From Cyanidioschyzon merolae (taxonomy: Eukaryota): 64,000 nucleotides of DNA. The translations under genes and the position numbers were made by a program. The DNA lies in NCBI GenBank assembly GCA_000091205.1, contig AP006496.2, one strand, 5' to 3'. This document shows positions 10,874-64,000 of this stretch, piece after piece; position 1 is the stretch's first letter, and each line of letters opens with the position of its first letter. The notes under the pieces were generated by a model, which was not told the origin of the DNA, searched no databases, and saw nothing but the letters and a program-made list of their open reading frames with translations.

Positions 10874-12148
10874 CTATCTCCGCATCGCCAAGGCGTTCTC
10901 CTCGAGGGCAGCCTCCCGGAATCTGCGGAGAGCGCCCTCCACAAACCGCCGGTCCAACAAATTGCTACACAGACGCCTCAGCATCTGCCGCACGATGTCC
11001 TGCTCCAGAGCGCTCAGAGATCGGTAGCGTTCACGCCAGTCCTTGCGGGATTCAGCGCATCCGCGTAGATCCCGGCCCAAAGGCGGCCCAGTGCCAGCCT
11101 CTGCGGCTTGCGCATCACTCCAGCTAGCGTTCACACACAGATCCGAATGCCGAGCGCTCTCGCCACCAGTCTCCTCGTATGGCATCAGCAAGTATGCCAA
11201 AAAGCCGTAGATAGCCCGAAAGTTAGCTGCCGAGCCCAGCGCATCCGCATGCGATGCACCCCGGTGCAGCTCAGCGATTCCCGCAGGTGCCGCGTCCGGC
11301 ACGCCCTTCAGCGATACGTTCGGCAGCCGCCGCTTCAGTGCGCGCACACCGTTTGCGCCTCCACCACTTCCAGCACCACATTCCGCTGGTGCTGCTGGTG
11401 CTGCTGGTGCTGCTGGTGCTGCTGGTGCTGCTGGTGCTGCTGGTGCTGCTGGTGCTGCTGGTGCTGCTGGTGTTGCGTCCAGCGCCACGCTGTCCAGTGG
11501 CGATGCGTGGGCACACGTGTCCGCTGATGCTGCGCGTATGCGTGCGTTTCCCGCCAATGCCCAGCGCCAGCCTCGATCGCGCGCTGCCGCATGCGCTAGC
11601 GATGCGCTGGTTGAGAAGTTTGCGCCTCCGCCCGAAGCAGACACGCTAGACACATCCTCCGCGGCGTGCGGTCTCAATAGGGTCCGTTCTTGAGGCGAAA
11701 GGGCGCTGTCCGATTCGTTTGTGGTGCGTACTGGTGCCTTGTCGACGGTTGCCGCAGTTGCGCGCGTCTCGGGTCGCGAACCCGTGCTGGAGGCCGCTCC
11801 GCCGTCACTTGCCTCGGTGCTGGCGGCGCTGCTGCCGCCGCCCGCAGTTCGTCGCTTGCGCGCTGGGGGAATCCACGCGCTCTGATCGCTCTTCTGCAGT
11901 TTCAGAAAATACTTCTGTGCATGCGACCGGATCTGTACAACCGTCTTCGTCCCTATGTGCTGCTCAATGCGCTTCCAATCCCGCTCATACAGCCGCAGCG
12001 CCTCCACGAATAGCTCGTGCTCCTCCGCTGTCCACGCTTCGCGTGGCTTCATGAGGCGGTACGGCTTGCGCGGTCGGCGCGTCACTGGCGTTAGACGAGT
12101 CCCAGACGAGCCGCATCCTGTTGTTTCCTCCGATACTGATGGCCACAT
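10874..12148 (-). CDS. SHAQKYF-class (CCA1/RVE-like) single-repeat Myb DNA-binding protein
   Basis: N-terminus reads [56 protein letters not shown] at 12146-12148. A low-complexity (PAA)n tract is encoded by a 9-bp microsatellite. Confidence 0.8.
11389..11480. repeat. 9-bp microsatellite (ctggtgctg)n, about 10 copies, coding (PAA)n inside the Myb gene
   Basis: The repeat is visible directly. Alternative-frame ORFs read (LLV)n, (CWC)n and (QHQ)n. Confidence 0.9.
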
Positions 12149-13136
12149 CCCGCTCTATTGTTCCCTACTTTTAGCCAATTGTGCGCCGTTTGAAGTGCTT
12201 ACACCAACCTGCGAACTACAGCACCAAACTGTGACCGAGTCCACGCGCCTGCACTGAGCTGCACGAAGCTTTGCGCGACTCTGAGCAAGAGCACCAAAAA
12301 GCAAGCAAGTGTGCGACCAGGTCCGTCACGAGAGAAGATTTTCCGACTCGCACCAGTCGCCACAACGATAGAGTCTCCTTTCGACACGCTGCAGCCACCA
12401 CGAGCTCCTACAGTGCACGTCGCGAGTCCCGGACACGTATCCCAGGCTCTGCAAGCCCTATCGCAAGCTGGCTACCAGAAAGCACAACGTATACCGCTGC
12501 AAACAGAGCCACTGGTTCCCGCACACCGATTCTTTTGGATGGCGTCAACCACCACCGGTGAGAGTCTCAGTGCGACTCGCCAGCGATATCCGCGCACAGC
12601 CAAAGCAACGCGCAAAGTTCGGCGGTTCGAGCGGCCGCTCCAACGCAACGCGGCACCCTGCCGGCCAGCTGCGGAGCAGCGTTTGCTGAGGCTTCTGTTG
12701 CCAGCCGCGGTACGTTCGGCTTTAGCTGGGGTTGAATTTTGAGCAGCGTCTGCCACAAGGGTCGCCTCGGGGTCGTATCCGTAGGAGCGCTGCTGCGAAG
12801 CCGCTGTGGCGGCTGTAGGCGGAACATCCGAGGGCGTTTCCCATTGCTGGACCTCTCACGCTGCGATATCCCCCGAGGCAGAGGCTCGTCGGTTCGGCGA
12901 CGGTTAGGGCGCTGCTCCGTCGCGTGTAGGCCGGGCCTTCTAGGCAGCGTGCGCGCTTCGGTTGCAGGACGGTTTCACTCCTGCGCACTTTCTGCCGTTT
13001 CGTGGGCGTGGCACTTTCTTGGAGGCACCTGGTGACGAACGGGGATCCTCTGAGCACCAAGACCGCCTGAGACGTGTGTAGGCGGGACACTGCGCGCCCT
13101 GGGTGCATATTGCCGAACTCACTGCCACAGGGCGGT

Positions 13137-13490
13137 ACGAAGAGTCTCCCGCATGGATAACGTTGAGTCATAGGACGTCGGGGATACGGTGTGTATATCA
13201 CCGGAATTGCTCCCGCCGAGCGGTACGAAGAGTCTCCCGAGTAGACAGCTAAGAGTCATAGGACGTCGGGGACACAGTGTGTATATCACCGAAATTGCTC
13301 CCGTCGAGCGGTACGAAGAGCCTCCCGCATGGATAACGTTGAGTCATAGGACGTCGGGGATACGGTGTGAATATCACCGGAATTGCTCCCGCCGAGCGGT
13401 ACGAAGAGTCTCCCGTGTAGACAGCCAAGAGTCATAGGACGTCGGGGACACAGTGTGTATATCACGGGAATTGCTCCTGCTCACAAACTG
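13137..13490. repeat. 88-bp minisatellite, 4 units of two alternating subtypes (176-bp higher-order repeat x2)
   Basis: Unit 'cggtacgaagagtctcccg...gtcataggacgtcgggga.ac.gtgtgtatatcaccggaattgctcccgccgag' recurs. Confidence 0.85.
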
Positions 13491-14684
13491 CGTATTGCGA
13501 CCTGATCATGCTGGTTTGCGCATATGCTAATACTATTCCTAACGTCTGAACAGAGAAAGCCTCTGCCCGGGGTCGTCCAGAGTCTCATGCGGCGCTGTCG
13601 AATAGTTTGCCGTGGAGTTTATTTACAGTTGGGAGTCGCGGGCGCTCCGACTCGAGCAGCTGCGTTCGCGTCCTTGGATAGCGAAAGCGCTCCATGCTAC
13701 TGGTGTTCGACTCACTCGATCATGTGTGGGCACTGAGGATACAATGTCCGACGACCTCTGACTGGCAAGCACCAGTCATGCGCGCCCTCGGCTTCTAGTT
13801 CCAGACGACAGTCTGCCCGCTGCGGGCATCGACGTGGTGAAGGTAGGCAGCCGGCTCGAGCGATCGTCCATGCTGCCACGGATGCTGTGATCCCTATTTG
13901 GGTTCAATGACTCTACCCCATACACACACGAGTGTCCGCGCGAACGAAGTGCTTCGAGCAGGCCCGGCACAGAGCTCTCGACATGCCGCGCCATTCCCCC
14001 TGGACGAAACCGCTGGGCTGCTTGTTCGGGAATCGACGCTGCAACCACCGGCTGGGTCCACAGGAAGCGCACCGTCCAGGAATACGACTGCGCTGTGCGC
14101 CTGGGACTTGTGCTGACCCGTGTCAGCGCTCACGAAGGAGCGGCTGAGACTCGGACGAGCGCCTTCGCCAGCTCGAGTAGCGTATGCGCTCCAGTGCGCT
14201 GACGTGCTCCAGTGCGCGCTGGCAAGCAGGCATGCTCTATCGTGTTTGGCGAGCATCTGGACGAGCACTGCACCCCAGCTTGGAGACGAGAACGCCTGTC
14301 GCTCCAGAAATTGTCGAATACAGTACCCGAGATGGATCAGCGCGAGGCTTCGAAGAAGACAGACGCCTGGAACAGGCACCCGTCACCACTCGAAGAGGCA
14401 ACACAGATAGCTCAGCGTTTAGGTTTCCGGTCCCGTTCAACTCTGGTCGGGTCTCCCGCGCGGCGGGCACCGCTTAATGCACGTCGCATCAGGGTAGAGC
14501 ACTGCATCCAATGCAGCGCAAAACACGAGGGGAACACATGCCTCAGAGGCATCGAAGACGACAGCGACATGAGCGTAGAACTCGCCGTAGAAAAGGCCTC
14601 TGCACGAGCCCATTGGAAAAGATCCGGCGGAGCTCGGCAACGTGCCCCTAAAATGAACAGCTACCTTGTATCGCGCCTGACCGC

Positions 14685-15473
14685 TCACGGTCGCGCCGCT
14701 CCGACACCGATAACAGGCGCTCCACCCATGACACCAGGCGCCACACCCACGGGTGCTGCCGGCATAGCCGCCGGGCCGTATGTCGTGTGTGTCGCAACAA
14801 CCTTGCCGAGCGTGTCTTCCTCCTTCGGCTCCAGAATAACGATCGAGTCCGGAAGCGGCTTCCGCGGGCCCTGACGGCCTGTCGGATCGTGCGGCAACAT
14901 GATCTTCACCTTGATCCCGAGTACGCCTTGCCGCAAGAGCACGTGCCGCACGGCGCGGTCGATAAAGTCGAGTTTCGGTTGCCCCGTCGAGATCATGTAC
15001 CCGTCCATGAACTTCATGGTCTTTGCCCGCTGCGCCCGGAGCTTCCCGGAGATTTGCACTTCGCAGCCCTTGGCCCCAGACTCCATCACAAAGCGAAGCA
15101 CGCCGTACGCCGCACGTCGCACAGCGAGCCCGCCCAGCAGTTTGTACCGCAGAGACTCGGCCTGTGCCATCGCGCACAGACCTCTGTTCGGCACGCGCTC
15201 GACAAACAGCGACACCTGGTTCTCCGGAAAGCCAAAGCGTTTCTCAACAAGCGCAGTCAGCTCACGAATGCGCCGGCCCTTCTCGCCGAGCACAGTCTGC
15301 GTCCGTGTCGCTCGGATAATGACCTCGTGGCCTCGAGGTGTCACGCGCACCTCAACGCCAGCGTACCCGTCCTCCGCCAGCTCACGCGTGAGCAGCTCAG
15401 ACAGCTCCGCGAAGAAAACGCCGTCCGCAACAAACTTGCGCTTCCAAGAAACCTGTCTACGACCAGCCTCCAT
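14685..15473 (-). CDS. RPS3: 40S ribosomal protein S3 (uS3)
   Basis: ..[72 protein letters not shown]... and ..[24 protein letters not shown].. show the KH domain and uS3 core. ATG at 15471-15473. Confidence 0.93.
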
Positions 15474-15794
15474 GATTAAAGCAGCACCCTCACGCGCTTA
15501 CGCAGAGAACCTCAAAAAAGCACAGGAACGAAGCAAGAGAGCGACAGCGTGCAGGAAGCTACACCCAGCACCACAAGGTCGCACACCGTCTCAGTTGCGC
15601 ACCTACAAGCGCTGATTCGCCAACAAACAAGCAAACCGAGTCTGTCACGACGGTGAGAAGCGCTCAGGTAACGAACTGAGCTTCGTAGAGCCTGTACAGC
15701 GCGGCGCGACGCGGCAGTGCGGCGACGAATGCGTGCGCACGGGATGCGTGCACGCGTGCAGGCCATGCGATGCGGGCAGGCGTTGATGGCATTG

Positions 15795-38615: not shown

Positions 38616-39059
38616 CCCAGTTCGGCAGACTTTCAGCACGCTGCGATGCCGAGTACACGTCGCTCGCAGGGCCTAGCAGGTCCGCTCCTTAAAGCCTACG
38701 CAGCGCACGCTCCAACACGCTGTTCCAGCGGACCTGTGGTTGTAATTCGGGCTTGCGGGGTGTGTCGCCCCGCTGCCGACGGTCGGTCCAGCTGCTTGTA
38801 GCACCCCCGCTACCTCCGTGGAAGCTGTTTTTCCTGCCAGCGGCGGGCGTTTGAATGAATCGTCGATAAAACACTGTCCCAGGCGCGTCGCAGTGCTCCC
38901 CAGCTGACGAGCACCCGAAGCCATTTCTGTTACCCGATGCGTCGCAGCGCTTTCGTATGGACCATCGGCGCGTTTGCTTCTAAGATGAGCATAGAGCGAA
39001 TAGATAGACTCACTCACACGCTTTCCGCAGGACTTATACGAGCGGGTGCCTGCTATGGG

Positions 39060-40460
39060 CTTTCACTCTCATCTTGTTCACTTCGAGTCTGAGAGGCTGG
39101 CCCGGAAAGTTGGCTCAAACCAGCTCCTTGGGTCTTCTACTGAGCACTGTATGTCGTCTAATGTTCATAGCAGCGTTGAAGTCTGGGATCACGAACTGGA
39201 TGCGTTTATTGTCTCTTATTAAACTCACCAATGCAAGGATCCCTCGAAATGCTGCCCTCGGTGCCATTTGGTGCTCCATCACCTCTCCAAGGTTTCCTAT
39301 TCCCAAAGTGCTCCGTTGCCTTCTCTCCATCTCGACGTTATGAAGGATACACCCCAGCACATCCATTAGATTTTTTAAACACATTTCTTTATGCCCCTAG
39401 GTGACGACCTTATAGGAGCGCGTAGGACTTGCGGAAGAAAGACGTCATGTGTCTCTGTGTACCACCGTGTTCTGAACGCTTCAGTGATTCGCCTAGTGGC
39501 GCGATCTTTACTTTTCACAATAGGAAACACTTCTTCAATGTGGTTGAACCGGAAGCGTACTGACGAATGAAATGCAGCCCTACTCCGGTAGAATTGGGCA
39601 AGGCTTCAATGCGAGGGGAATGGTGAAATTCCAAAAAGTCGAACAGAAGAACACAGCCAGACGTCAGGGAATCGTCTTCAAAGATTCTACGATGTGAAAA
39701 CTGTTGTATGAGCGTTCTCTGGAGTCGAAACTGAGGCCGCAAAAGAAATCCACTGCAGCTGGAGTAGAGAAATTCTTATGTATTTTCGATATCGATTGTA
39801 TATCCAACGGGCGCCCCTCATCGCGAATACTCATATCCACTGTGACGGTTCTGTGTGGAGCAAATCTCGTGGAATGAAAAAAACAACGTTCTTGTGGCTC
39901 ATAGCCGGCGCGATGTTTCAGGGACTGTGTTCTAGTCGCCATTTCGTTCGGACATGGCTGTGAACGATCTAGGACATTTTATGTGACTGTATGCCACTGG
40001 TTTCAGGACCATACGAAAAAGCTGTAGACAAAAACAGTCACCGGTGATGGCTGCTATCGTCGCTTTTTGTTCCCGCAAAGTCGGCAACGGGTCGTGTTCT
40101 ATCACTGACCTCATGCACGCGTCGAGAATATCCGTTTCTTTTCGCGGAGTTCATCTAATTCTTTCTCTAGTGTTCCTCGACCGTTTGAGTGTTGTTCCAT
40201 GACTGACATCAAGAATCAATACAGATCTCCTTCAAATATCCAGTATATAATATATCCTACATGAAATTCGACTTCGATATATACAGTATATTACAACGTG
40301 ATTCCCATCTCTTGCTATACATCGCAGATCGTGTCGAGTAACCATGGGTTGAAAGCCTAAAAGATCGCGGATCGCAATCCCACCACCACCGTTCTGCTGT
40401 CTGGATCGCCGAGTCGCGAACGCTGTGGAGCCACGCTGTTCAGGGACACGTGGCAGATAT
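39060..40460. other. GC-poor island 2 with frameshifted minus-strand ORF fragments
   Basis: Composition shifts to AT-rich. Three abutting minus-strand ORFs (39115-39384, 39515-39742, 39664-39942) lie in different frames. Confidence 0.5.
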
Positions 40461-46749: not shown

Positions 46750-49700
46750 GCTTCAAGAATTGGACGCCGTCTCGAGGCCTGCCTGGTGCCTGCTCCACGT
46801 CATCCGAAAGAAACCTTCACATACGTGTTCAGCTCGAATGCTGTATTCGTAGCGTCCTCCTTATCCAATGTCATAATTAGGCCGAAAGACTGATACGTCC
46901 GCCATCAAGTTCTGTTGCCCAGCAAAAGACGTTCCAGGTGGCAGAGCAGAATCGCTTGAGCAGAGCTTTATCGGCTCCAGTCACTGCACGCTGCAAACAG
47001 TATCGATTACGAAGTAGATACACTAAGTAAAATCGAATAATGGAACACCTGTATCGTCTACAAGTTGCCTAGGAAGACCGATTCCGGTGTATCTATACGG
47101 CGCTCCAGCATCACTGGATTGCTTAACCGCACTACACCAGTGCCTTGCTTCATGCTTGGATCCAAACGTTCCCTCCTGGCCGCTGTTTCTTCATCGCATG
47201 GCTTCCGATTTTCAGCACAATGCCCGCAATGACTACGACACGACTTTTTCGATACTTCGCTTAACACAGAGTCTTGGGCGCTGCAGAAGCACGAGACATA
47301 TTCCGGATGTTGGTCGAGGCGTTGAACTCCCGGTGGAGAAAGTGCTTTTGCCCATGACTGCTGGGAAATGCGCACCGCAGTAAACCTGTCACCATAGACT
47401 ACCTTGCCAGCTGACGTGCGGTCAGCTTCACGTCCACCATGTCGTACATTCGGACCTGTTCCTCTCTGTTTCTCAAGCTGCATCATCGTGCACCTCAGCT
47501 CGTGGTGCTTTCATGTCGTCCTGAACTTGTCCAAAGGAATCCTGCACAATCGGCTCCTGCATTCGTTTTACGCTCCGAGCGAAGGAGCATGAGTCCAGCC
47601 TTTGTGTTGAACAGCACGTTCAGCGTCATAGGCCATTACCAAACGACACGACGTATCGGTTATTTCCTTTTTCAACACAGTGAGCAAATTGGTGAATGCA
47701 CGCATCTTGCGAACGTGCAACCCGAAGCGCTGACGACACCAGTACGGTATCATGAACTCCTGCTAAATCTCATTCTCATATGCAATTTTGACGCTCGCAT
47801 ACTCCCTGAATCAAGTGATGAAAGTACGCCCTCTGCACGATACGGCGCCCAGAGCGTCGGCACAGGTCCGGACGGCATTCCTCAATCTGTTGGAATGTCC
47901 CGCGGCGTCTATGATGCCCAGCTGCAGATGATACTGAACGCTGGAAACCATGAGCAGCTTCCTGTGATATCCGTTCGGATCTTTGGATCCTTCATTATGG
48001 TTTGGAGGTACGTCGACGCTCATGATATTGCTGGACCTTGGATGCACGCCCACCACGAAGAGTTTCTTATCACCTACCGTGAACAGTTGGATACGACTCG
48101 CATTGTTCGACTCATGATTCGGTTTCCGATGAATTCGATGGAGATTAAGCCTTCGTTGGTCTGCAACGTTACTGTATGCTTCGTTCCGTTTTCGCCCGGT
48201 CTAGGAGAAATCTTGAGCGAGCTCTACCAATACATTTCGCGGACTCGTTTGAACTCTTCACATTTGCTTCCGGGTGTCCGCCCTAACCCGCTGAGGAGGC
48301 CACACAACATTGTAGACACTCATCTATGGCGATGTAATGAGCATTAATGTCACACATGGAAACCACATCCAAAATAAACACCAGAGGAGACGAGGACTCT
48401 CGAATTCGGGAAGGGAGTCGACCGCGCTCTGGATGGCTCTGCTCAGGAACACGTAGTGCTTCAAGATGGAATGTAGGTAGGTAGATATCACGTCTCAATT
48501 ATACATCGGATACGACGTCCGCTGGTCCGAGGCAGAGAGCAACACGATGAGCTTGGACAGCATGAAGCGTCTCTTGCTCTCGTTAACGCATCTCTTTGAA
48601 CTTCGCGACAAACTCCATCTCGTCCGTAGCCAGCAAGCCACTTGCCTACGTCCGCACCCGAAGAATCCCTTCATGTAATCCTCACTGTTCTGAGCCTCAA
48701 TAGTGACGCTATAATGACCACAGCGTGCGCTTCATGAAGCCCCGGTCATTGGCTTGAACATGGTTTTGCTTGTTGAGGTTGTTTTGAAACTTTCTGGCAA
48801 CTGCGGCGTACATGTTCCGATGGATGATGTGTAACGGCGAGGCGTCGGGGTAGTTTTGGAAGCGTGTGTACAAATCTCTAATCCTATGAACAAGCCGAAT
48901 GGCATCTTCTATCCGAAGCATCCGTTGCTGCAAGGAGGTTTGACAGAAGATTTCCTGAGGAATGCGGACAACTGGCAGCCCAGCGTCCGCAGCGCCCCTG
49001 AGCAGTTGCTTGGCGAGGTGTGTCAAGGAGAGGTAAGCATGGCGAGCTTCCGCCGAGGTGGAAGCTGCGCGAACCTCAACGGCCAGCTGCCTCATCCTTT
49101 TTGGAAGACTCACCAGCTTGATACGTTTTCTGTGGAAAGCCTCGACAACGAGTGCAGACTGATCTATCCGCTACCACAATTTTTTCTTCTTGTCCCTCCT
49201 CGCCCACTTTTCGGAAGGATCCTTCCCCTCTTCGTCTAGTGGTTTCCTCTCCCTCTCCACAAAGCGGTGTTGGTACCGATGCGGTCGATATACTTCATAT
49301 CTGTTTTTTCTCTGGGCTGAAACAGTCTCGGCGATAGATGGCAATGAAGCTCATCTATTCTGCGTGAGTGTCGATTTCTCCTGAAGCACCTCTTTGCCAC
49401 CGTATCTGCGGGCAGCGCGCTCGCGGTGCGGGGCACGCTTTCCCCTCCCTGATGCGCTCGAGCGGAGGAGCAAACCATCAGCTCAGAGCTGGTTACCATA
49501 GAAAAACACTCGTCCGAGAACGGTCGAGCGAACGACTTCTCGACTGATCTGTGAGCATGAAAGCGGAGTCTGCCGACAGAAAATTTACCTTCAACTGTTG
49601 TGGACCGAGGAGTTCAGGCTAGCACGAAGAACAGCTCACTACCTATTGCTGCAGCATACACCCAGACCGCCTTGGATCTCTACAAAGCGACGTTGTCTAA

Positions 49701-53064: not shown

Positions 53065-53148
53065 GGGGGGCTGGCGCAACGGTAGCGCGTTTGACTCCAG
53101 TCCGCAGTGGCGATCAAAAGGTTATCGGTTCAAATCCGGTGTCCCTCA
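53065..53148 (+). tRNA. tRNA-Trp (anticodon CCA) with a 12-nt intron at the canonical 37/38 position
   Basis: Manual fold:
- acceptor GGGGGGC/GTCCCTC plus discriminator A
- D-arm GCGC-AACGGTA-GCGC
- anticodon stem TTTGA/TCAAA around loop CT-CCA-G[tccgcagtggcg]A
- variable loop AGGTT
- T-arm ATCGG-TTCAAAT-CCGGT
Coordinates may be off by 1. Confidence 0.7.
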
Positions 53149-54678
53149 CATTTTGCAAGCTCGTGCCGCTTTGGCACTAGAGGTACTGCACTACGCAGCA
53201 AGACGCTCGGGGACACTTCCTGCGGTTCGCAGCCTCAGAGCTGTGTACCGCGCATACTGCACTCAATGGAGTTGTTAGCGGGGGCGACTAACGCTCCAGA
53301 GGTTGCTTTCGTTGCTACGGTCTAGGCTTGCTGAAACTGACCAGACTCGCTCGGGTGCGCGAACGTTACCAGCGGTCAGTTTAGAAACAGTCGTTTCGCT
53401 GCGGACGCTTGGACCTTCCGCCAGCCACGGTACTGTGAAATGCCCACGGCATAGAGGCTTGTTCGACCCAGTGAACAACCGGGAGCCAAGCTATCTTAGG
53501 CACCTGCTTCAATGTTGTTGCGTAGAGCCTGACTCCTCCGGTTGTGCGAGAGCAGCCAATAACTAGTGGAGGGAGCAGCTCTGCTCTCCAGATGCGTCTG
53601 CGTTCCAGTGGCCCAAAACTTTTCTTTCCATTGGGGCATGGTTTTCAATCGATCCAGCGGCATGTGTCCGTATAGCGCCGCGTCTACCGATACTACTTGC
53701 TCCGAGGTTGGATGCGACGCCACCACGGTGACCGCACTGGAACAGAGCAGCCCCGCCGTGCCATTGCGGGTGTCGGGCCGAAGCTCTTAAACCAAATGCC
53801 CTCGGGCAGAATCCGCAGGGCCCCTGGATCTGCAAGAATGCTGAAGGGAAACGCACTCGCGAGGCCGCTTCGACGGCAGCGCGGCAAGCGACTCGGACAT
53901 GACGTCGAGTGGCCAGCCTTCAGTGACGCGCCCTGTCCGTGGCTGGGTATCCAACGCGGCAGCGCCAACCCTGCAAACCCCGGACAGCGCTCGGGTAGCA
54001 CACGCGTCACTGTGATTCTACGTATGTATCCAAATGCGCTCGGGGTTGCCAAAACCCGCAATATCCATCCGCGCTCGGTAACACGGCTGCATCGAAACGC
54101 GCGCGTTGCCTAGTCCTGAATCTTTGAAACACCTGAACCTCGTCGCGGGCTGAGAGCTAATGAAAGCGCCGCGCAACGCCTAGGAACTTGTTCCCCATTC
54201 TGACTTTCGGTATTTAGTGTGTGCTGCTCCACCCCGGGGCCGCTGTACACAACCATCCTTTCTGTCCAGCCGAAGACGCATTGCCTTCGATGTGATCGCA
54301 ATAAAGCACTGGAATACAAAGGGAAAGCAGCAGCAGCAGCAGATGATGGTGACCGTGTTCAACGTCTAACAAAGTTTCCTCATGCCTTTACTGGAGCTTT
54401 CACTGCACACGGCGAGGGATATGTGGGCGCCCCGTCAGCGTGCCCGTCTGGCTCAGCTACTAGCCCTCGCACGGGACGCATGATACCGTTGGAGTTTAGA
54501 TCGACGCTACACCATTGCAATGCAGCAACAGCCGCTGTCTATTACACTGAAATTTACCTGGTCTCAAAACCGTATCCCACTTTCCGCACGATGGACATAT
54601 ACTACAAGCGCGTTTCTGGTAGCCGTATATTTGACAAGGGTGCTTTCCTGGCACGAAAAAAAGTAATGAACAGAGTTC

Positions 54679-55167
54679 TCAAGCTGTGCAGTTCGTTGAA
54701 CTGCCAGAGCCCGACGGATCCTCGCGCAGATGACCAACTACTTCGTATTTTTGGAGAAACTTCTCAAACCACTGGTACAGCGTCTCTTTTTCGTGCTCCG
54801 TCAAATCATCAATAGCGCCACAGACTTCGCCAGGTTCCGTGCTCATCTTTGCGAGTCCTCTGCTCGCGTTCTTCCCAGCAAAGACAAAGTACGGCCCACC
54901 GGGCCCATAAAAAGACCTCGCATCGGAGACGTCGAAAACTTCAGCCCGCGCCCCAGGCCGTGGCTGTACGGCCACGTAGATCGGCTGCCCTTTTGTTCCG
55001 TTGTACTGAGCAAGCTCTTCGCCAGTGAACGCCCTCGGTGCCGGCCGTTCATGGTGCCGTGGCGGCGGCTGCACTGCAGGGTTCTCAACGTGGTTACCCA
55101 TCAAGCGAAGCGCACCCAGCACGAATACACCGCCACCCAAAAGTAACCAGAGTCCAACTGCATCCAT
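54679..55167 (-). CDS. MAPR-type membrane-associated cytochrome b5-like heme/steroid-binding protein
   Basis: An N-terminal TM segment (MDAVGLWLLLGGGVFVLGAL) precedes ..FTGEELAQYNGTKGQPIYVAVQ...VFDVSDARSFYGPGGPYFVFAGKNASRGLA.. ATG at 55165-55167. The upstream ORF extension derives from the adjacent Fanzor-like element end. Confidence 0.75.
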   Translation of the reverse strand: MDAVGLWLLLGGGVFVLGALRLMGNHVENPAVQPPPRHHERPAPRAFTGEELAQYNGTKGQPIYVAVQPRPGARAEVFDVSDARSFYGPGGPYFVFAGKNASRGLAKMSTEPGEVCGAIDDLTEHEKETLYQWFEKFLQKYEVVGHLREDPSGSGSSTNCTA

Positions 55168-55222
55168 GATAGCGTCGAAGCGTTCACCAAACGCCGTTCT
55201 AAAGTAGAACGACGCCGACCGT

Positions 55223-56422
55223 TTACAGTAGAGGAGAGAAACCCGCCCTAGACAAGAAGTCTCCAACTGATGTGCAGACGCCTCCCGTCTTTTTCGACGG
55301 GTCACCCACTACTGCTTCCAACTTCTTCTCATATAGGTCGACTTTGAGAGGTTGTCCAATAAAGTTCATTGTTGTTGACTCTGGAGGTCTCTTCTCCAGC
55401 ACCGCACATCTCCTTACATTGATGGCGGCGTTTAAGTCCCGGTTCACGAATTCCATACGTTTCGTCCCGTTGATTGTACTTACTAATGGAAGGAGTCCAC
55501 GAACTTTCGCCCTCCTTTCCATTTGCTCCTCTGCCAGCTGTCCGTACTTTGCTATTTCCTCGGGGCTCCGTTGGCACTTTTCCATCGCCACTCTCTGAAG
55601 TGTGCAACCCAGCTCGTGGTGTGTGTACGATGTTCGAAACTCATCTATAGGTATCGTGACGAAACGCCTTGCGCACTCCTTGTACGCTCTCGTCGTTGGA
55701 GCTGGTGTACACCCTTTTTGGGTCTTCCATCGCCTTGCTCCGTACGCTACTACGAGCCCTTGACGGTCGTCCTCCTTCAAGGCGCTCAACTGGTTGAAAG
55801 AATTCGCGAACGCCCGCCGCTTACCACAATACAAATTCATTCGCAAACGAGCCCACCGGGACTTGGTATACTCATCCCACAGTGCATCCCAATGAGCAAC
55901 GCGAAATTCTATGAACTCCCGAAGAGCTTTAAAGTCCGCTCCGCGGCTCGTCACCTCGCTCAAAGTTTCCAGGCGATCCTTCATTCCTGCATTCCATGTC
56001 TCGATTTTCTTCCTTGCATTCACTATATCGGATTCTCGATAGTATATTGCTCTCGAGAATCTCAACAGATGCACGTCTTTCTGACGTAAGTTGCCGTCAG
56101 TACCATCTTCCTCACGCTTCGGTGCTACGATGGTTATGATATTGGTATTCCCAGGGTCCGCGCCAACGACAAAGTCGCTATCCCGCACTTTCTGCGTCGC
56201 AGGTTCCGCCTCCTTCTTCTCTTCATGCTTCGCCGCGTAAACGATAACGTGGTTATCCTGCACTTTCTGCGTCGCAGGATCCGCCGTCTTCTTATCTTCA
56301 TCCTTCCTCACGGACGAAGCCGAAGGCGGGACTGAACGATCTGCCTTCAACCGTCGATAGTGTACACACATGGCTACTCCATCGGGTTCGATCATCCCAG
56401 TGAAAAACTTTTGCTTGATCAC
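55223..56422 (-). CDS. TnpB/Fanzor-like RNA-guided-nuclease-family protein (RuvC-I, degenerate Zn finger, RuvC-III). N-terminal REC/WED region is absent.
   Basis: [16 protein letters not shown] fits the RuvC-I GxDxGxxN motif. [22 protein letters not shown] fits the TnpB 'vdp-yTSq-C' entry to the Zn ribbon. [10 protein letters not shown] fits RuvC-III RDxNAAxNI. Only about 85 aa precede RuvC-I. There is an internal 75-bp direct duplication at about 56200-56300. The ORF starts at a GTG; the first ATG is at 56393-56395. Confidence 0.7.
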
Positions 56423-56489
56423 TTTGAGAGGTTTGAAATCGAATATATTCTTCCAGTACGTCTTCCGGTTCTTACCGGTTAACTTGCGT

Positions 56490-57326
56490 CAGAAAGACGT
56501 GCATCTGTTGAGATTCTCGAGAGCGATATACTATCGAGAATCCGATATAGTGAATGCAAGGAAGAAAATCGAGACATGGAATGCAGGAATGAAGGATCGC
56601 CTGGAAACTTTGAGCGAGGTGACGAGCCGCGGAGCGGACTTTAAAGCTCTTCGGGAGTTCATAGAATTTCGCGTTGCTCATTGGGATGCACTGTGGGATG
56701 AGTATACCAAGTCCCGGTGGGCTCGTTTGCGAATGAATTTGTATTGTGGTAAGCGGCGGGCGTTCGCGAATTCTTTCAACCAGTTGAGCGCCTTGAAGGA
56801 GGACGACCGTCAAGGGCTCGTAGTAGCGTACGGAGCAGGGCACTGGAAGACCCAAAAAGGGTGTACACCAGCTCCAACGACGAGAGCGTACAAGGAGTGC
56901 GCAAGGCGTTTCGTCACGATACCTATAGATGAGTTTCGAACATCGTACACACACCACGAGCTGGGTTGCACACTTCAGAGAGTGGCGATGGAAAAGTGCC
57001 AACGGAGCCCCGAGGAAATAGCAAAGTACGGACAGCTGGCAGAGGAGCAAATGGAAAGGAGGGCGAAAGTTCGTGGACTCCTTCCATTAGTAAGTACAAT
57101 CAACGGGACGAAACGTATGGAATTCGTGAACCGGGACTTAAACGCCGCCATCAATGTAAGGAGATGTGCGGTGCTGGAGAAGAGACCTCCAGAGTCAACA
57201 ACAATGAACTTTATTGGACAACCTCTCAAAGTCGACCTATATGAGAAGAAGTTGGAAGCAGTAGTGGGTGGCCGGTCCAAAAAGACGGGGAGGCGTCTGC
57301 ACGTCAGTTGGAGACTTTTTGTCTAG
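56490..57326 (+). pseudogene. 5'-truncated inverted copy of the Fanzor/TnpB-like gene. It lacks RuvC-I but retains the Zn-finger-like segment and RuvC-III.
   Basis: ORF 56370-57326 matches the minus copy from [11 protein letters not shown]... onward, about 99% identical. Small indels change the C-terminal frame (GGRSKKTGRRLHV against [13 protein letters not shown]). Confidence 0.6.
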
Positions 57327-57634
57327 GGCGGGTTTCTCGCCACTACTGTAAACGGTCGGCGTCGTCCGACTTTAGAACGGCGTTCGGTGTCGGTGGCCCT
57401 TTTACGAGGTTTCTTCCGACGCAACCTCCAGCTTTTGAACAGTTGACCGCGAACCGACACCCGCATCCGTTTTTTTACACAACACAACCTGAGCAAAAAG
57501 TTTGCAGAGAGTCTTACACGTTACGAAAGCGAAATATGTTGGTCCGAGCTACTTGTGCCCTGAAATCCTCGGATAATAAGCAAATACACCACGCATGGAA
57601 AAGTTGAATCTGCGTCTATTCGAACGCACTTTGG

Positions 57635-63650: not shown

Positions 63651-64000
63651 CTAAGCGGACTTGAGCGGCAGCGCCTCGCTTCTATGCAGGGCTTGTAGCA
63701 GGCAAAACGCGCCAATACTTATTTTGTAAAACGAAAAATGCTTCGTGGACATGCAGGATAAACTAATACCGATGCGCAGACGCCTAAGAGCGTTTTTGGA
63801 CCAGTCGCCTGCTATCGGCTTCAGTTTCTCCTTGCACACTTCGAGCATCAGAGCCTGCCTCACAAAGTTGTATCGAGTCGGCTCCTGTGGTTTCATCTTC
63901 AGCACCGCACATCTTCTCTTATTGATGGCGGCGAAGTATCAGTTTGCGATCTCTTTGCATTCATTGACGCTGCTTGAGCTCACCGATGGAGGGATTCCAA
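63651..64000 (-). mobile_element. C-terminal part of a third, divergent Fanzor/TnpB-like copy running off the window end
   Basis: ORF 63651-63905 (..KMKPQEPTRYNFVRQALMLEVCKEKLKPIAGD..) aligns with ..[32 protein letters not shown].. of the 55223 copy at about 45% identity. Nucleotides 63895-63945 (cagcaccgcacatcttctcttattgatggcggcg) match 55395-55430 across the RDLNAAIN-coding segment. Confidence 0.6.

Follow-up and report, generated by a model that had tools for sequence, protein, structure and literature searches.

Does a 399-amino-acid (aa) reading frame that resembles a Fanzor nuclease, begins only a short way before its first catalytic motif and carries no glutamate where the second is expected, encode a reduced or rearranged enzyme, form the last exon of a split gene, or survive within the debris of a mobile element? 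The question is raised by an open reading frame (ORF) at 55223-56422 (minus strand) of a 64,000-nucleotide (nt) stretch of Cyanidioschyzon merolae DNA (GenBank assembly GCA_000091205.1, contig AP006496.2), hereafter called the window; the locus sits in the C. merolae 10D nuclear genome. A sequence-only reading of this flagged ORF had proposed either a decaying or domesticated remnant, or a Fanzor1-type rearranged catalytic site with upstream exons not visible as a single ORF, and each of these alternatives is found to hold in part. With high confidence, the locus can be regarded as a dead, rearranged remnant of a Fanzor1 transposable element (TE), most likely CMe-1A, in which two 5'-truncated copies lie head to head: copy A, which holds the flagged ORF, and copy B, which forms one arm (arm B) of an inverted duplication and had been overlooked.

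Fanzor1 homology and the catalytic site

The flagged ORF has 261 homologues, the longest of 593 aa, and belongs to a family represented by at least 339 copies in JGI metagenome contigs; at E<=1e-3, 1365 cluster representatives (from a library clustered at 50% identity) were retrieved, many of them 600-700 aa long. Its affiliation emerges from a profile, A3, built from 73 diverse full-length relatives that are 25-41% identical to P0017, the first sequence of the set, to which the flagged ORF is 75% identical. This profile matches the Fanzor1 proteins of Parasitella parasitica (PpFz1, structure 9cf0; E=2.6e-22) and of Spizellomyces punctatus (SpuFz1, structure 8gkh; E=3.5e-13), and these matches to solved Fanzor1 structures bear out the description of the ORF as Fanzor-like and support the assignment of the family to Fanzor1.

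Where, then, is the catalytic glutamate? Once the SpuFz1 numbering in the 8gkh alignment is corrected by the MBP offset of 394, residues D318, G320, E490 and D559 of the family (P0017 numbering) align to D383, N385, E541 and D606 of SpuFz1, which coordinate two magnesium ions (Saito et al., PMC10432273). Across A3, D318, G457 (of A-Y-G) and E490 (of DEFRT) are invariant (73/73), as is D559 in the 71 relatives that have the column. The corresponding features of the flagged ORF are as follows.

55223-56422, minus strand: flagged ORF (copy A), a Fanzor1 gene fragment of 399 aa, covering family residues ~347-757 of ~757, with a GTG start and the last 29 aa frameshifted
56158-56306, minus strand: tandem repeat of 2 x 75 nt encoding a 25-aa acidic unit (period 75, 2.0 copies, 83-84% matches, TRF score 214), directly N-terminal to the RuvC-I strand
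56156-56158, minus strand: codon of D89, the RuvC-I Asp of VVGADPG, in copy A only; aligns to SpuFz1 D383, is found in 73/73 relatives and corresponds to the first residue of the Fanzor1 motif D-X(125,275)-[TS][TS]
55739-55747, minus strand: codons of A226-Y227-G228 at the canonical RuvC-II position, without Glu; the Gly, found in 73/73 relatives, aligns to the Gly of SpuFz1 'VVMGDW'
55640-55642, minus strand: codon of E261, the alternative catalytic Glu in IDEFRTS; aligns to SpuFz1 E541 (arm B equivalent 56931-56933)
55436-55438, minus strand: codon of D329, the RuvC-III Asp in VNRDLNAA (arm B equivalent 57135-57137)

All three acidic residues are retained in copy A, and the Glu and the last Asp in arm B; in addition, R328-D329 of the flagged ORF align to R605-D606 of SpuFz1, the 'RD' motif of RuvC-III. 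The earlier statement that the RuvC-II Glu is lacking was right in that A226-Y227-G228 contains none, but the LVVAYGAGHW quoted for it comes from an ORF on the opposite strand (56370-57326, plus) and not from the flagged ORF, which reads ten residues of its own at the equivalent position, with an Arg, after A-Y-G-A, in place of the conserved Gly/Ala of AYGA[GA]. According to Jiang et al. (PMC10530073), the place of the RuvC-II Glu of TnpB is taken in Fanzors by an inert Pro or Gly, and the essential Glu is an alternative one ~45 aa away; the corresponding G500/E536 pair of SPu-1-1p is conserved in Fanzor1 (Bao & Jurka, PMC3627910). Because an invariant Gly occupies the canonical position in this family and an invariant Glu follows 33 residues downstream in DEFRT[ST] (G228-E261; 36 residues in SpuFz1), the 'missing' Glu is, as judged from the alignment, the normal published Fanzor state across the family and not a lesion. 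The rearranged site proposed by the sequence-only reading is thus present, the invariant Gly and Glu aligning to the Gly and E541 of SpuFz1. Intact members of the family are predicted to be RNA-guided RuvC nucleases.

Upstream of the site, 88 residues precede the RuvC-I Asp (about 85 had been estimated), and a 75-bp duplication that had been placed at about 56200-56300 was confirmed at 56158-56306, where it encodes the near-repeat quoted for it (segments of 19 and 17 residues). The number of 25-aa units varies from 1 to 6 across 48 family members, and the duplication is thus not specific to this locus. Within every unit, the sequence DNDFVVxA mimics the first RuvC strand but lacks the DPG.

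Two truncated copies in an inverted pair

The short N-terminus has a different explanation. A fuller copy in metagenome contig L001 (3659-5935), which itself carries two in-frame stops, encodes ~757 aa, of which 455, starting with a basic N-terminus, precede RuvC-I, and its N-terminal region is contiguous. Copy A matches residues 347-757 of the full-length protein and copy B only residues 478-757. The suspected N-terminal truncation is confirmed by this comparison with other copies, and although an acidic residue elsewhere (E261) does occupy the catalytic position, a form of ~390 aa is not the norm of a family whose proteins reach ~757 aa. The region that copy A lacks (residues 1-346) is found in full-length relatives, in which profile positions 146-453 align to PpFz1 641-981; by analogy, the missing portion is where the WED/REC regions would lie. 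At the other end of copy A, a 1-nt deletion at ~55287 swaps the consensus C-terminus (GGRSKKTGRRLHVSWRLFV) for an unrelated tail of 29 aa, and at its start the first ATG is codon 10, after the initial GTG. Since the N-terminal portion is missing, no ATG stands at the start and the tail is frameshifted, copy A, judged by its coding content, cannot work as a Fanzor; read in the same way, the locus holds a fragment of a gene rather than a Fanzor protein.

The truncation is part of a larger rearrangement, an inverted duplication with arms at 55185-56092 and 56481-57389 (909 nt each, 98.2% identical, 388 nt between them), which comprises the following features.

55185-56092, minus strand: arm A, the 3' 909 nt of copy A, from the codons for 'NLRQKD' to the element 3' end
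56093-56480, minus strand: inter-arm segment of 388 nt, the part of copy A missing in arm B (ORF residues ~1-110, with RuvC-I and the tandem repeat)
56481-57389, plus strand: arm B, which is copy B, more severely 5'-truncated (family residues 478-757)
56370-57326, plus strand: mechanical ORF over arm B, 318 aa, the first 37 aa of which are antisense read-through of the spacer, with Fanzor homology from 56481
56478-56483, no strand: junction of the two truncated copies inside a GTTAAC palindrome, with the breakpoint at 56480/56481 (sequence read directly)
55190-55298, minus strand: conserved 3'-terminal segment of arm A, ending ...TTTAGAACGGCGTT, then TGGTG, then the start of the cytochrome b5-like (Cyt-b5-like) gene; possible right end or end of an omega-RNA scaffold
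57275-57384, plus strand: conserved 3'-terminal segment of arm B, with a matching end ...GAACGGCGTT, then CGGTG, then unique DNA before MSH5

The two truncated 5' ends meet at 56480/56481, so that the copies stand head to head, and the match of copy A to the full-length protein ends at 56485, at this junction. Arm B begins at 'NLRQKD', hence without RuvC-I, and has the family-consensus C-terminus and stop. On their outer sides the arms reach the 3' boundary of the element itself and end there; past five similar bases (TGGTG / CGGTG) their flanks are unrelated. The arms differ at 16 positions, and these differences are unevenly spread, with 5 in the proximal 790 nt (0.6%) and 11 in the distal 119 nt (9.2%; binomial P=4.5e-7). 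Among the other family copies examined, the closest reaches 86% identity (median 82%).

Three independent metagenome contigs likewise contain the junction at 56480/56481. One of them, L003 (ENA ERZ27247235 k141_656230), is syntenic with the window and 99.3% identical to it over 8.9 kb, and its arm mixes variants of arm A and arm B in a mosaic; the two others, L092 and L093, share the orientation of the window and read into the pair from the MSH5 side. All eight contigs that hold the Cyt-b5-like gene break inside the arm. An empty site was not found among these contigs, as every one with the Cyt-b5-like gene or MSH5 already has an element arm. Two side observations concern these contigs. In L003 (1-1411, against window 55978-57389), the 388-nt segment is reversed relative to the Cyt-b5 flank, which reflects either recombination between the arms, flipping the segment, or an assembly path that short reads, unable to resolve 909-nt near-identical arms, leave ambiguous; a real flip of the segment is possible. 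L092 (ENA ERZ27247228 k141_135344), for its part, tracks the window over its positions 12026-15762 (MSH5, arm B and 205 nt of spacer), then, within the 75-nt tandem repeat, jumps to a copy of 78% identity and continues into a different locus (ribosomal protein L17), through either a strain rearrangement or a chimeric assembly.

How did two truncated copies come to face each other? In the scenario that we favour, two related 5'-truncated copies, initially more diverged than they are now, would have come to lie head to head, and the inner parts of the arms would later have been homogenised, probably by gene conversion or recombination between them. This fits better than a single random segmental duplication, because the arm differences are uneven and because both arms end at the element's 3' boundary, which a random duplication has no reason to respect. 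A one-step local fold-back duplication of a single truncated copy is nevertheless the alternative that survives best, although we consider it rather unlikely. It would account for the far closer identity between the arms than to any other copy (those copies being metagenomic and possibly from other species), and the GTTAAC palindrome at the junction could have primed the fold-back; but it leaves unexplained the contrast between proximal and distal divergence, and the mosaic arm of L003 suggests exchange between arms. The idea that a head-to-head dimer is the normal transposing unit was dropped, with just two more cases (L009 and L039) among the 80 family loci fetched, a number which, on a rough estimate, is about that expected from chance proximity of copies.

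Could the fragment have been retained by the host? Domestication, whether of the RuvC-only protein as a mini-nuclease or of the whole inverted pair in an intergenic regulatory role, appears very improbable. A 399-aa frame has been kept with all three catalytic residues, and the locus is 98-99% identical in several metagenome contigs of close relatives; these contigs, however, derive from near-identical strains and are uninformative on selection, and Fanzor1 requires its N-terminal domains to hold the omega-RNA and the target DNA, as seen in published structures. Moreover, the three Fanzor-like reading frames of the window are absent from a 15-billion-protein collection that holds the annotated neighbours, and are thus unannotated as genes. 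Decay therefore stands from the earlier proposal, residues 1-346 of ~757 being gone, while nothing favours domestication of an unannotated ORF with no ATG at its start, a frameshifted tail and an Arg beside the invariant Gly.

Still weaker is the case for an intact but split gene, in which WED/REC would be encoded by spliced upstream exons and the 399-aa ORF would be the last exon. Fanzor genes of other eukaryotes do contain introns, as stated by Jiang et al. (PMC10530073), and the sequence-only reading, from which hidden exons had been proposed, could see one ORF only. The exons are what fails here: the alignment with the full-length protein breaks off at the start of the inverted copy B, the region past that copy holds the 3' end of MSH5, and a tblastn search using five diverse relatives as well as the full-length protein detected no N-terminal family segment near the locus. 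In related full-length copies the N-terminus is encoded in one contiguous, intronless stretch, and C. merolae is an intron-poor organism, which also counts against a split gene; we give this explanation almost no credence. An assembly artefact, that is, a fold-back chimera of one truncated copy, is scarcely credible either: palindromic structures are a known artefact class and the L003 spacer is reversed, but the arms differ and have distinct unique flanks, the junction recurs in contigs of three other assemblies, and the arm-internal breaks of the Cyt-b5-like contigs are those expected of a real repeat.

The MSH5, primase-polymerase, pepsin A and Cyt-b5-like proteins of the window are exact matches to BAM81292, BAM81290, BAM81293 and BAM81291, respectively, and BAM81291 (Cyt-b5-like, 'steroid binding'; start at ~55167) and BAM81292 (MSH5) directly border the inverted pair, leaving a gap of ~2.5 kb. 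A mechanical ORF of 208 aa at 54679-55305 (minus) corresponds to the 162-aa Cyt-b5-like gene BAM81291 (ATG at ~55167), lengthened at its N-terminus by 46 spurious residues where the frame runs into the end of the Fanzor element, an error shared by some metagenome gene calls (195-208 aa).

The element family and its relation to CMe-1A

A core of 2.6 kb (L001 3395-5997) is common to nearly all loci, and is preceded at its start (L001 3395, with equivalents in L006, L016, L018 and others) by at least three unrelated, recurring upstream modules of ~0.2 kb, ~0.44 kb (~441 nt) and >1.8 kb. The shortest (~200 nt) ends in a poly(A)-like run (...ATGAAAAAAA), and the longest contains a reverse-transcriptase element in antisense orientation. 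The Fanzor element has a sharp 3' end, its last 110-130 nt being conserved and ending ...GAACGGCGTT. Among 31 copies, the first bases after ...GGCGTT are biased (T21 G21 K28 T21 G22, then TTGG-like), including those of the window at 55185-55189 and 57385-57389, which means either that the true element end lies 5-10 nt further out, or that there is a target-site preference.

Does this end harbour a guide RNA? The last 110-130 nt can form a long-range helix and a terminal hairpin, and a structure of 19 pairs, built by hand, reaches 89% pairing (29-71% in slid registers), but shuffles reach 88%, and covariation is weak, with double changes in only three of its pairs. RNAalifold gave no consensus structure in the 3' 230 nt of 28 copies and, in another run, the long-range helix only, and the putative omega-RNA at the 3' end has no Rfam match.

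The published element to which the locus most likely belongs is CMe-1A of C. merolae, which has ~150 copies of ~3 kb, ~80% identical to their consensus, with no terminal inverted repeats (TIRs), no recognisable target-site duplications and a class called unknown; some copies still encode an intact Fanzor1, and the 5' 635 bp are common to another repeat, TE-N2_CMe (Bao & Jurka 2013, Mob DNA 4:12, PMC3627910). The family described here resembles it in being, in the same organism, a ~3-kb single-ORF Fanzor1 element of high copy number without TIRs; in its age, the copies being ~80% alike (median 82% here) and some of them intact; in its length, a 2.6-kb core plus upstream modules of 0.2-0.44 kb amounting to ~3 kb; and in its modular 5' part common to another repeat, with three alternative upstream modules here, which may be related to the published 5' module of TE-N2_CMe. 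The locus itself departs from a complete CMe-1A element, as it consists of two 5'-truncated fragments joined head to head.

Several observations weigh against the reading of the locus as a Fanzor1 remnant of the CMe-1A family. The identification with CMe-1A relies on the published description of that element and is circumstantial. Taken alone, the flagged ORF has no match in Pfam or among PDB sequences (phmmer), and a narrow profile of 23 close relatives gave noise only against PDB sequences; the Fanzor link is visible solely with the broad A3 profile. The C4 zinc finger, which Bao & Jurka include in the Fanzor/TnpB motif, is absent, with no CxxC pair between the alternative Glu and RuvC-III, from the window copies and from 71 of the 73 relatives. 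The AlphaFold2 model of P0017, built from a shallow family alignment, is of low confidence (mean predicted local distance difference test score 36, predicted template modelling score 0.23) and lends no three-dimensional support to the geometry of the triad. Lastly, the survival of a 399-aa ORF in a dead copy is mildly unexpected, although intact-looking stretches are common in the family. A Pfam scan of seven close homologues likewise returned no family, and PF07282 (OrfB_Zn_ribbon), the Pfam family of the C4 finger, appeared only below threshold in two of ten relatives (E=0.0023 and 0.071).

The loss of the finger deserves a separate word. The finger region corresponds to residues 262-328 of the window ORF, where CMe copies conserve HHx3Cx9C instead, and the triad is invariant despite the loss. 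The C4 finger is treated here as typical of Fanzor1 rather than universal, and its absence as a real departure; the family is nonetheless filed as Fanzor1 because the homology is strong and because a C. merolae family (prefix CMe) is among the Fanzor1 families of Bao & Jurka.

Compared with experimentally solved relatives, the family shares with SpuFz1 (8GKH) and PpFz1 (9CF0) profile homology that spans the N-terminal region and RuvC-I, the Gly standing in the canonical RuvC-II place, the alternative Glu of DE[FY][RK]T[ST] and the [NR]RD of RuvC-III. It differs from them in lacking the CxxC...CxxxxC zinc finger (with HHx3Cx9C in the CMe copies) and in the acidic 25-aa tandem repeat inserted just before RuvC-I, and the window copy differs further in having nothing N-terminal to residue 347. 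SpuFz1 elements, moreover, have 30-nt TIRs (PMC10432273), unlike the family described here. With the TnpB proteins of IS200/IS605 (for example ISDra2 TnpB), the family has in common a split RuvC nuclease encoded by a mobile element and a conserved, sharply bounded 3' end where a guide-RNA scaffold would end; the rearranged Glu is shared with TnpB2 and Fanzor (PMC10530073). Unlike TnpB, however, it shows no direct sequence or Pfam match, resides in a eukaryotic nuclear host, has a much longer N-terminal region and lacks a TnpA partner.

Other traces of Fanzor1 occur in the window. At 47276-49227 (minus), a second copy of another subfamily is near full-length (family residues ~27-714) and decayed, with ~31% protein identity and no long ORF on that strand. 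At 31% identity, this copy (47.3-49.2 kb) suggests that C. merolae holds more than one Fanzor1 family; a single one is listed for the species by Bao & Jurka (PMC3627910). Two further fragments lie at 39055-39438 (minus; family residues ~606-739) and at 63768-63938 (minus; ~698-753), neither with the element 3' terminus. A rule of 5'-truncation for the family, as in Helitrons or retrotransposons, was considered and rejected, as these other window fragments lack the 3' end. Elsewhere, a solo 3'-terminal fragment of ~95 nt, with no coding part, was found in contig L052 (3517-3611), 3.3 kb upstream of a full copy and in the same orientation. Outside the Fanzor family, the window holds a tRNA gene at 53065-53149 (plus; Rfam 53.2 bits), identified by ARAGORN as an 85-nt tRNA-Trp (CCA), which was the sole match in an Rfam scan of the whole window.

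What the locus means for the family

Could such a locus still do something? It is conceivable, though quite improbable, that the outward 3' ends are still transcribed as omega-RNAs and loaded in trans by intact CMe-1 Fanzors, or that recombination between the arms flips the RuvC-I segment. If so, the guides of the omega-RNAs would be the flanks, that is, the start of the Cyt-b5-like gene and the 3' region of MSH5, and a flip (at which L003 hints) would move the 388-nt RuvC-I segment from one arm to the other; the locus would then be active, either as a source of guide RNA only or as an invertible Fanzor locus, rather than inert debris.

Taken together, the locus is an ordinary one, since both the family and its catalytic rearrangement are already published, and what the analysis clears is a false alarm: the absent RuvC-II Glu is that of a normal Fanzor, and the short N-terminus is that of a rearranged, dead copy of a family described in 2013. 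For specialists of Fanzor proteins, the interest lies in the clade itself, an algal Fanzor1 lineage that keeps an invariant triad yet has lost the C4 zinc-finger cysteines, carries an acidic 25-aa repeat of variable number before RuvC-I, and combines a sharp 3' end with interchangeable 5' modules, features that may assist in the classification of a transposon described so far as of unknown class.

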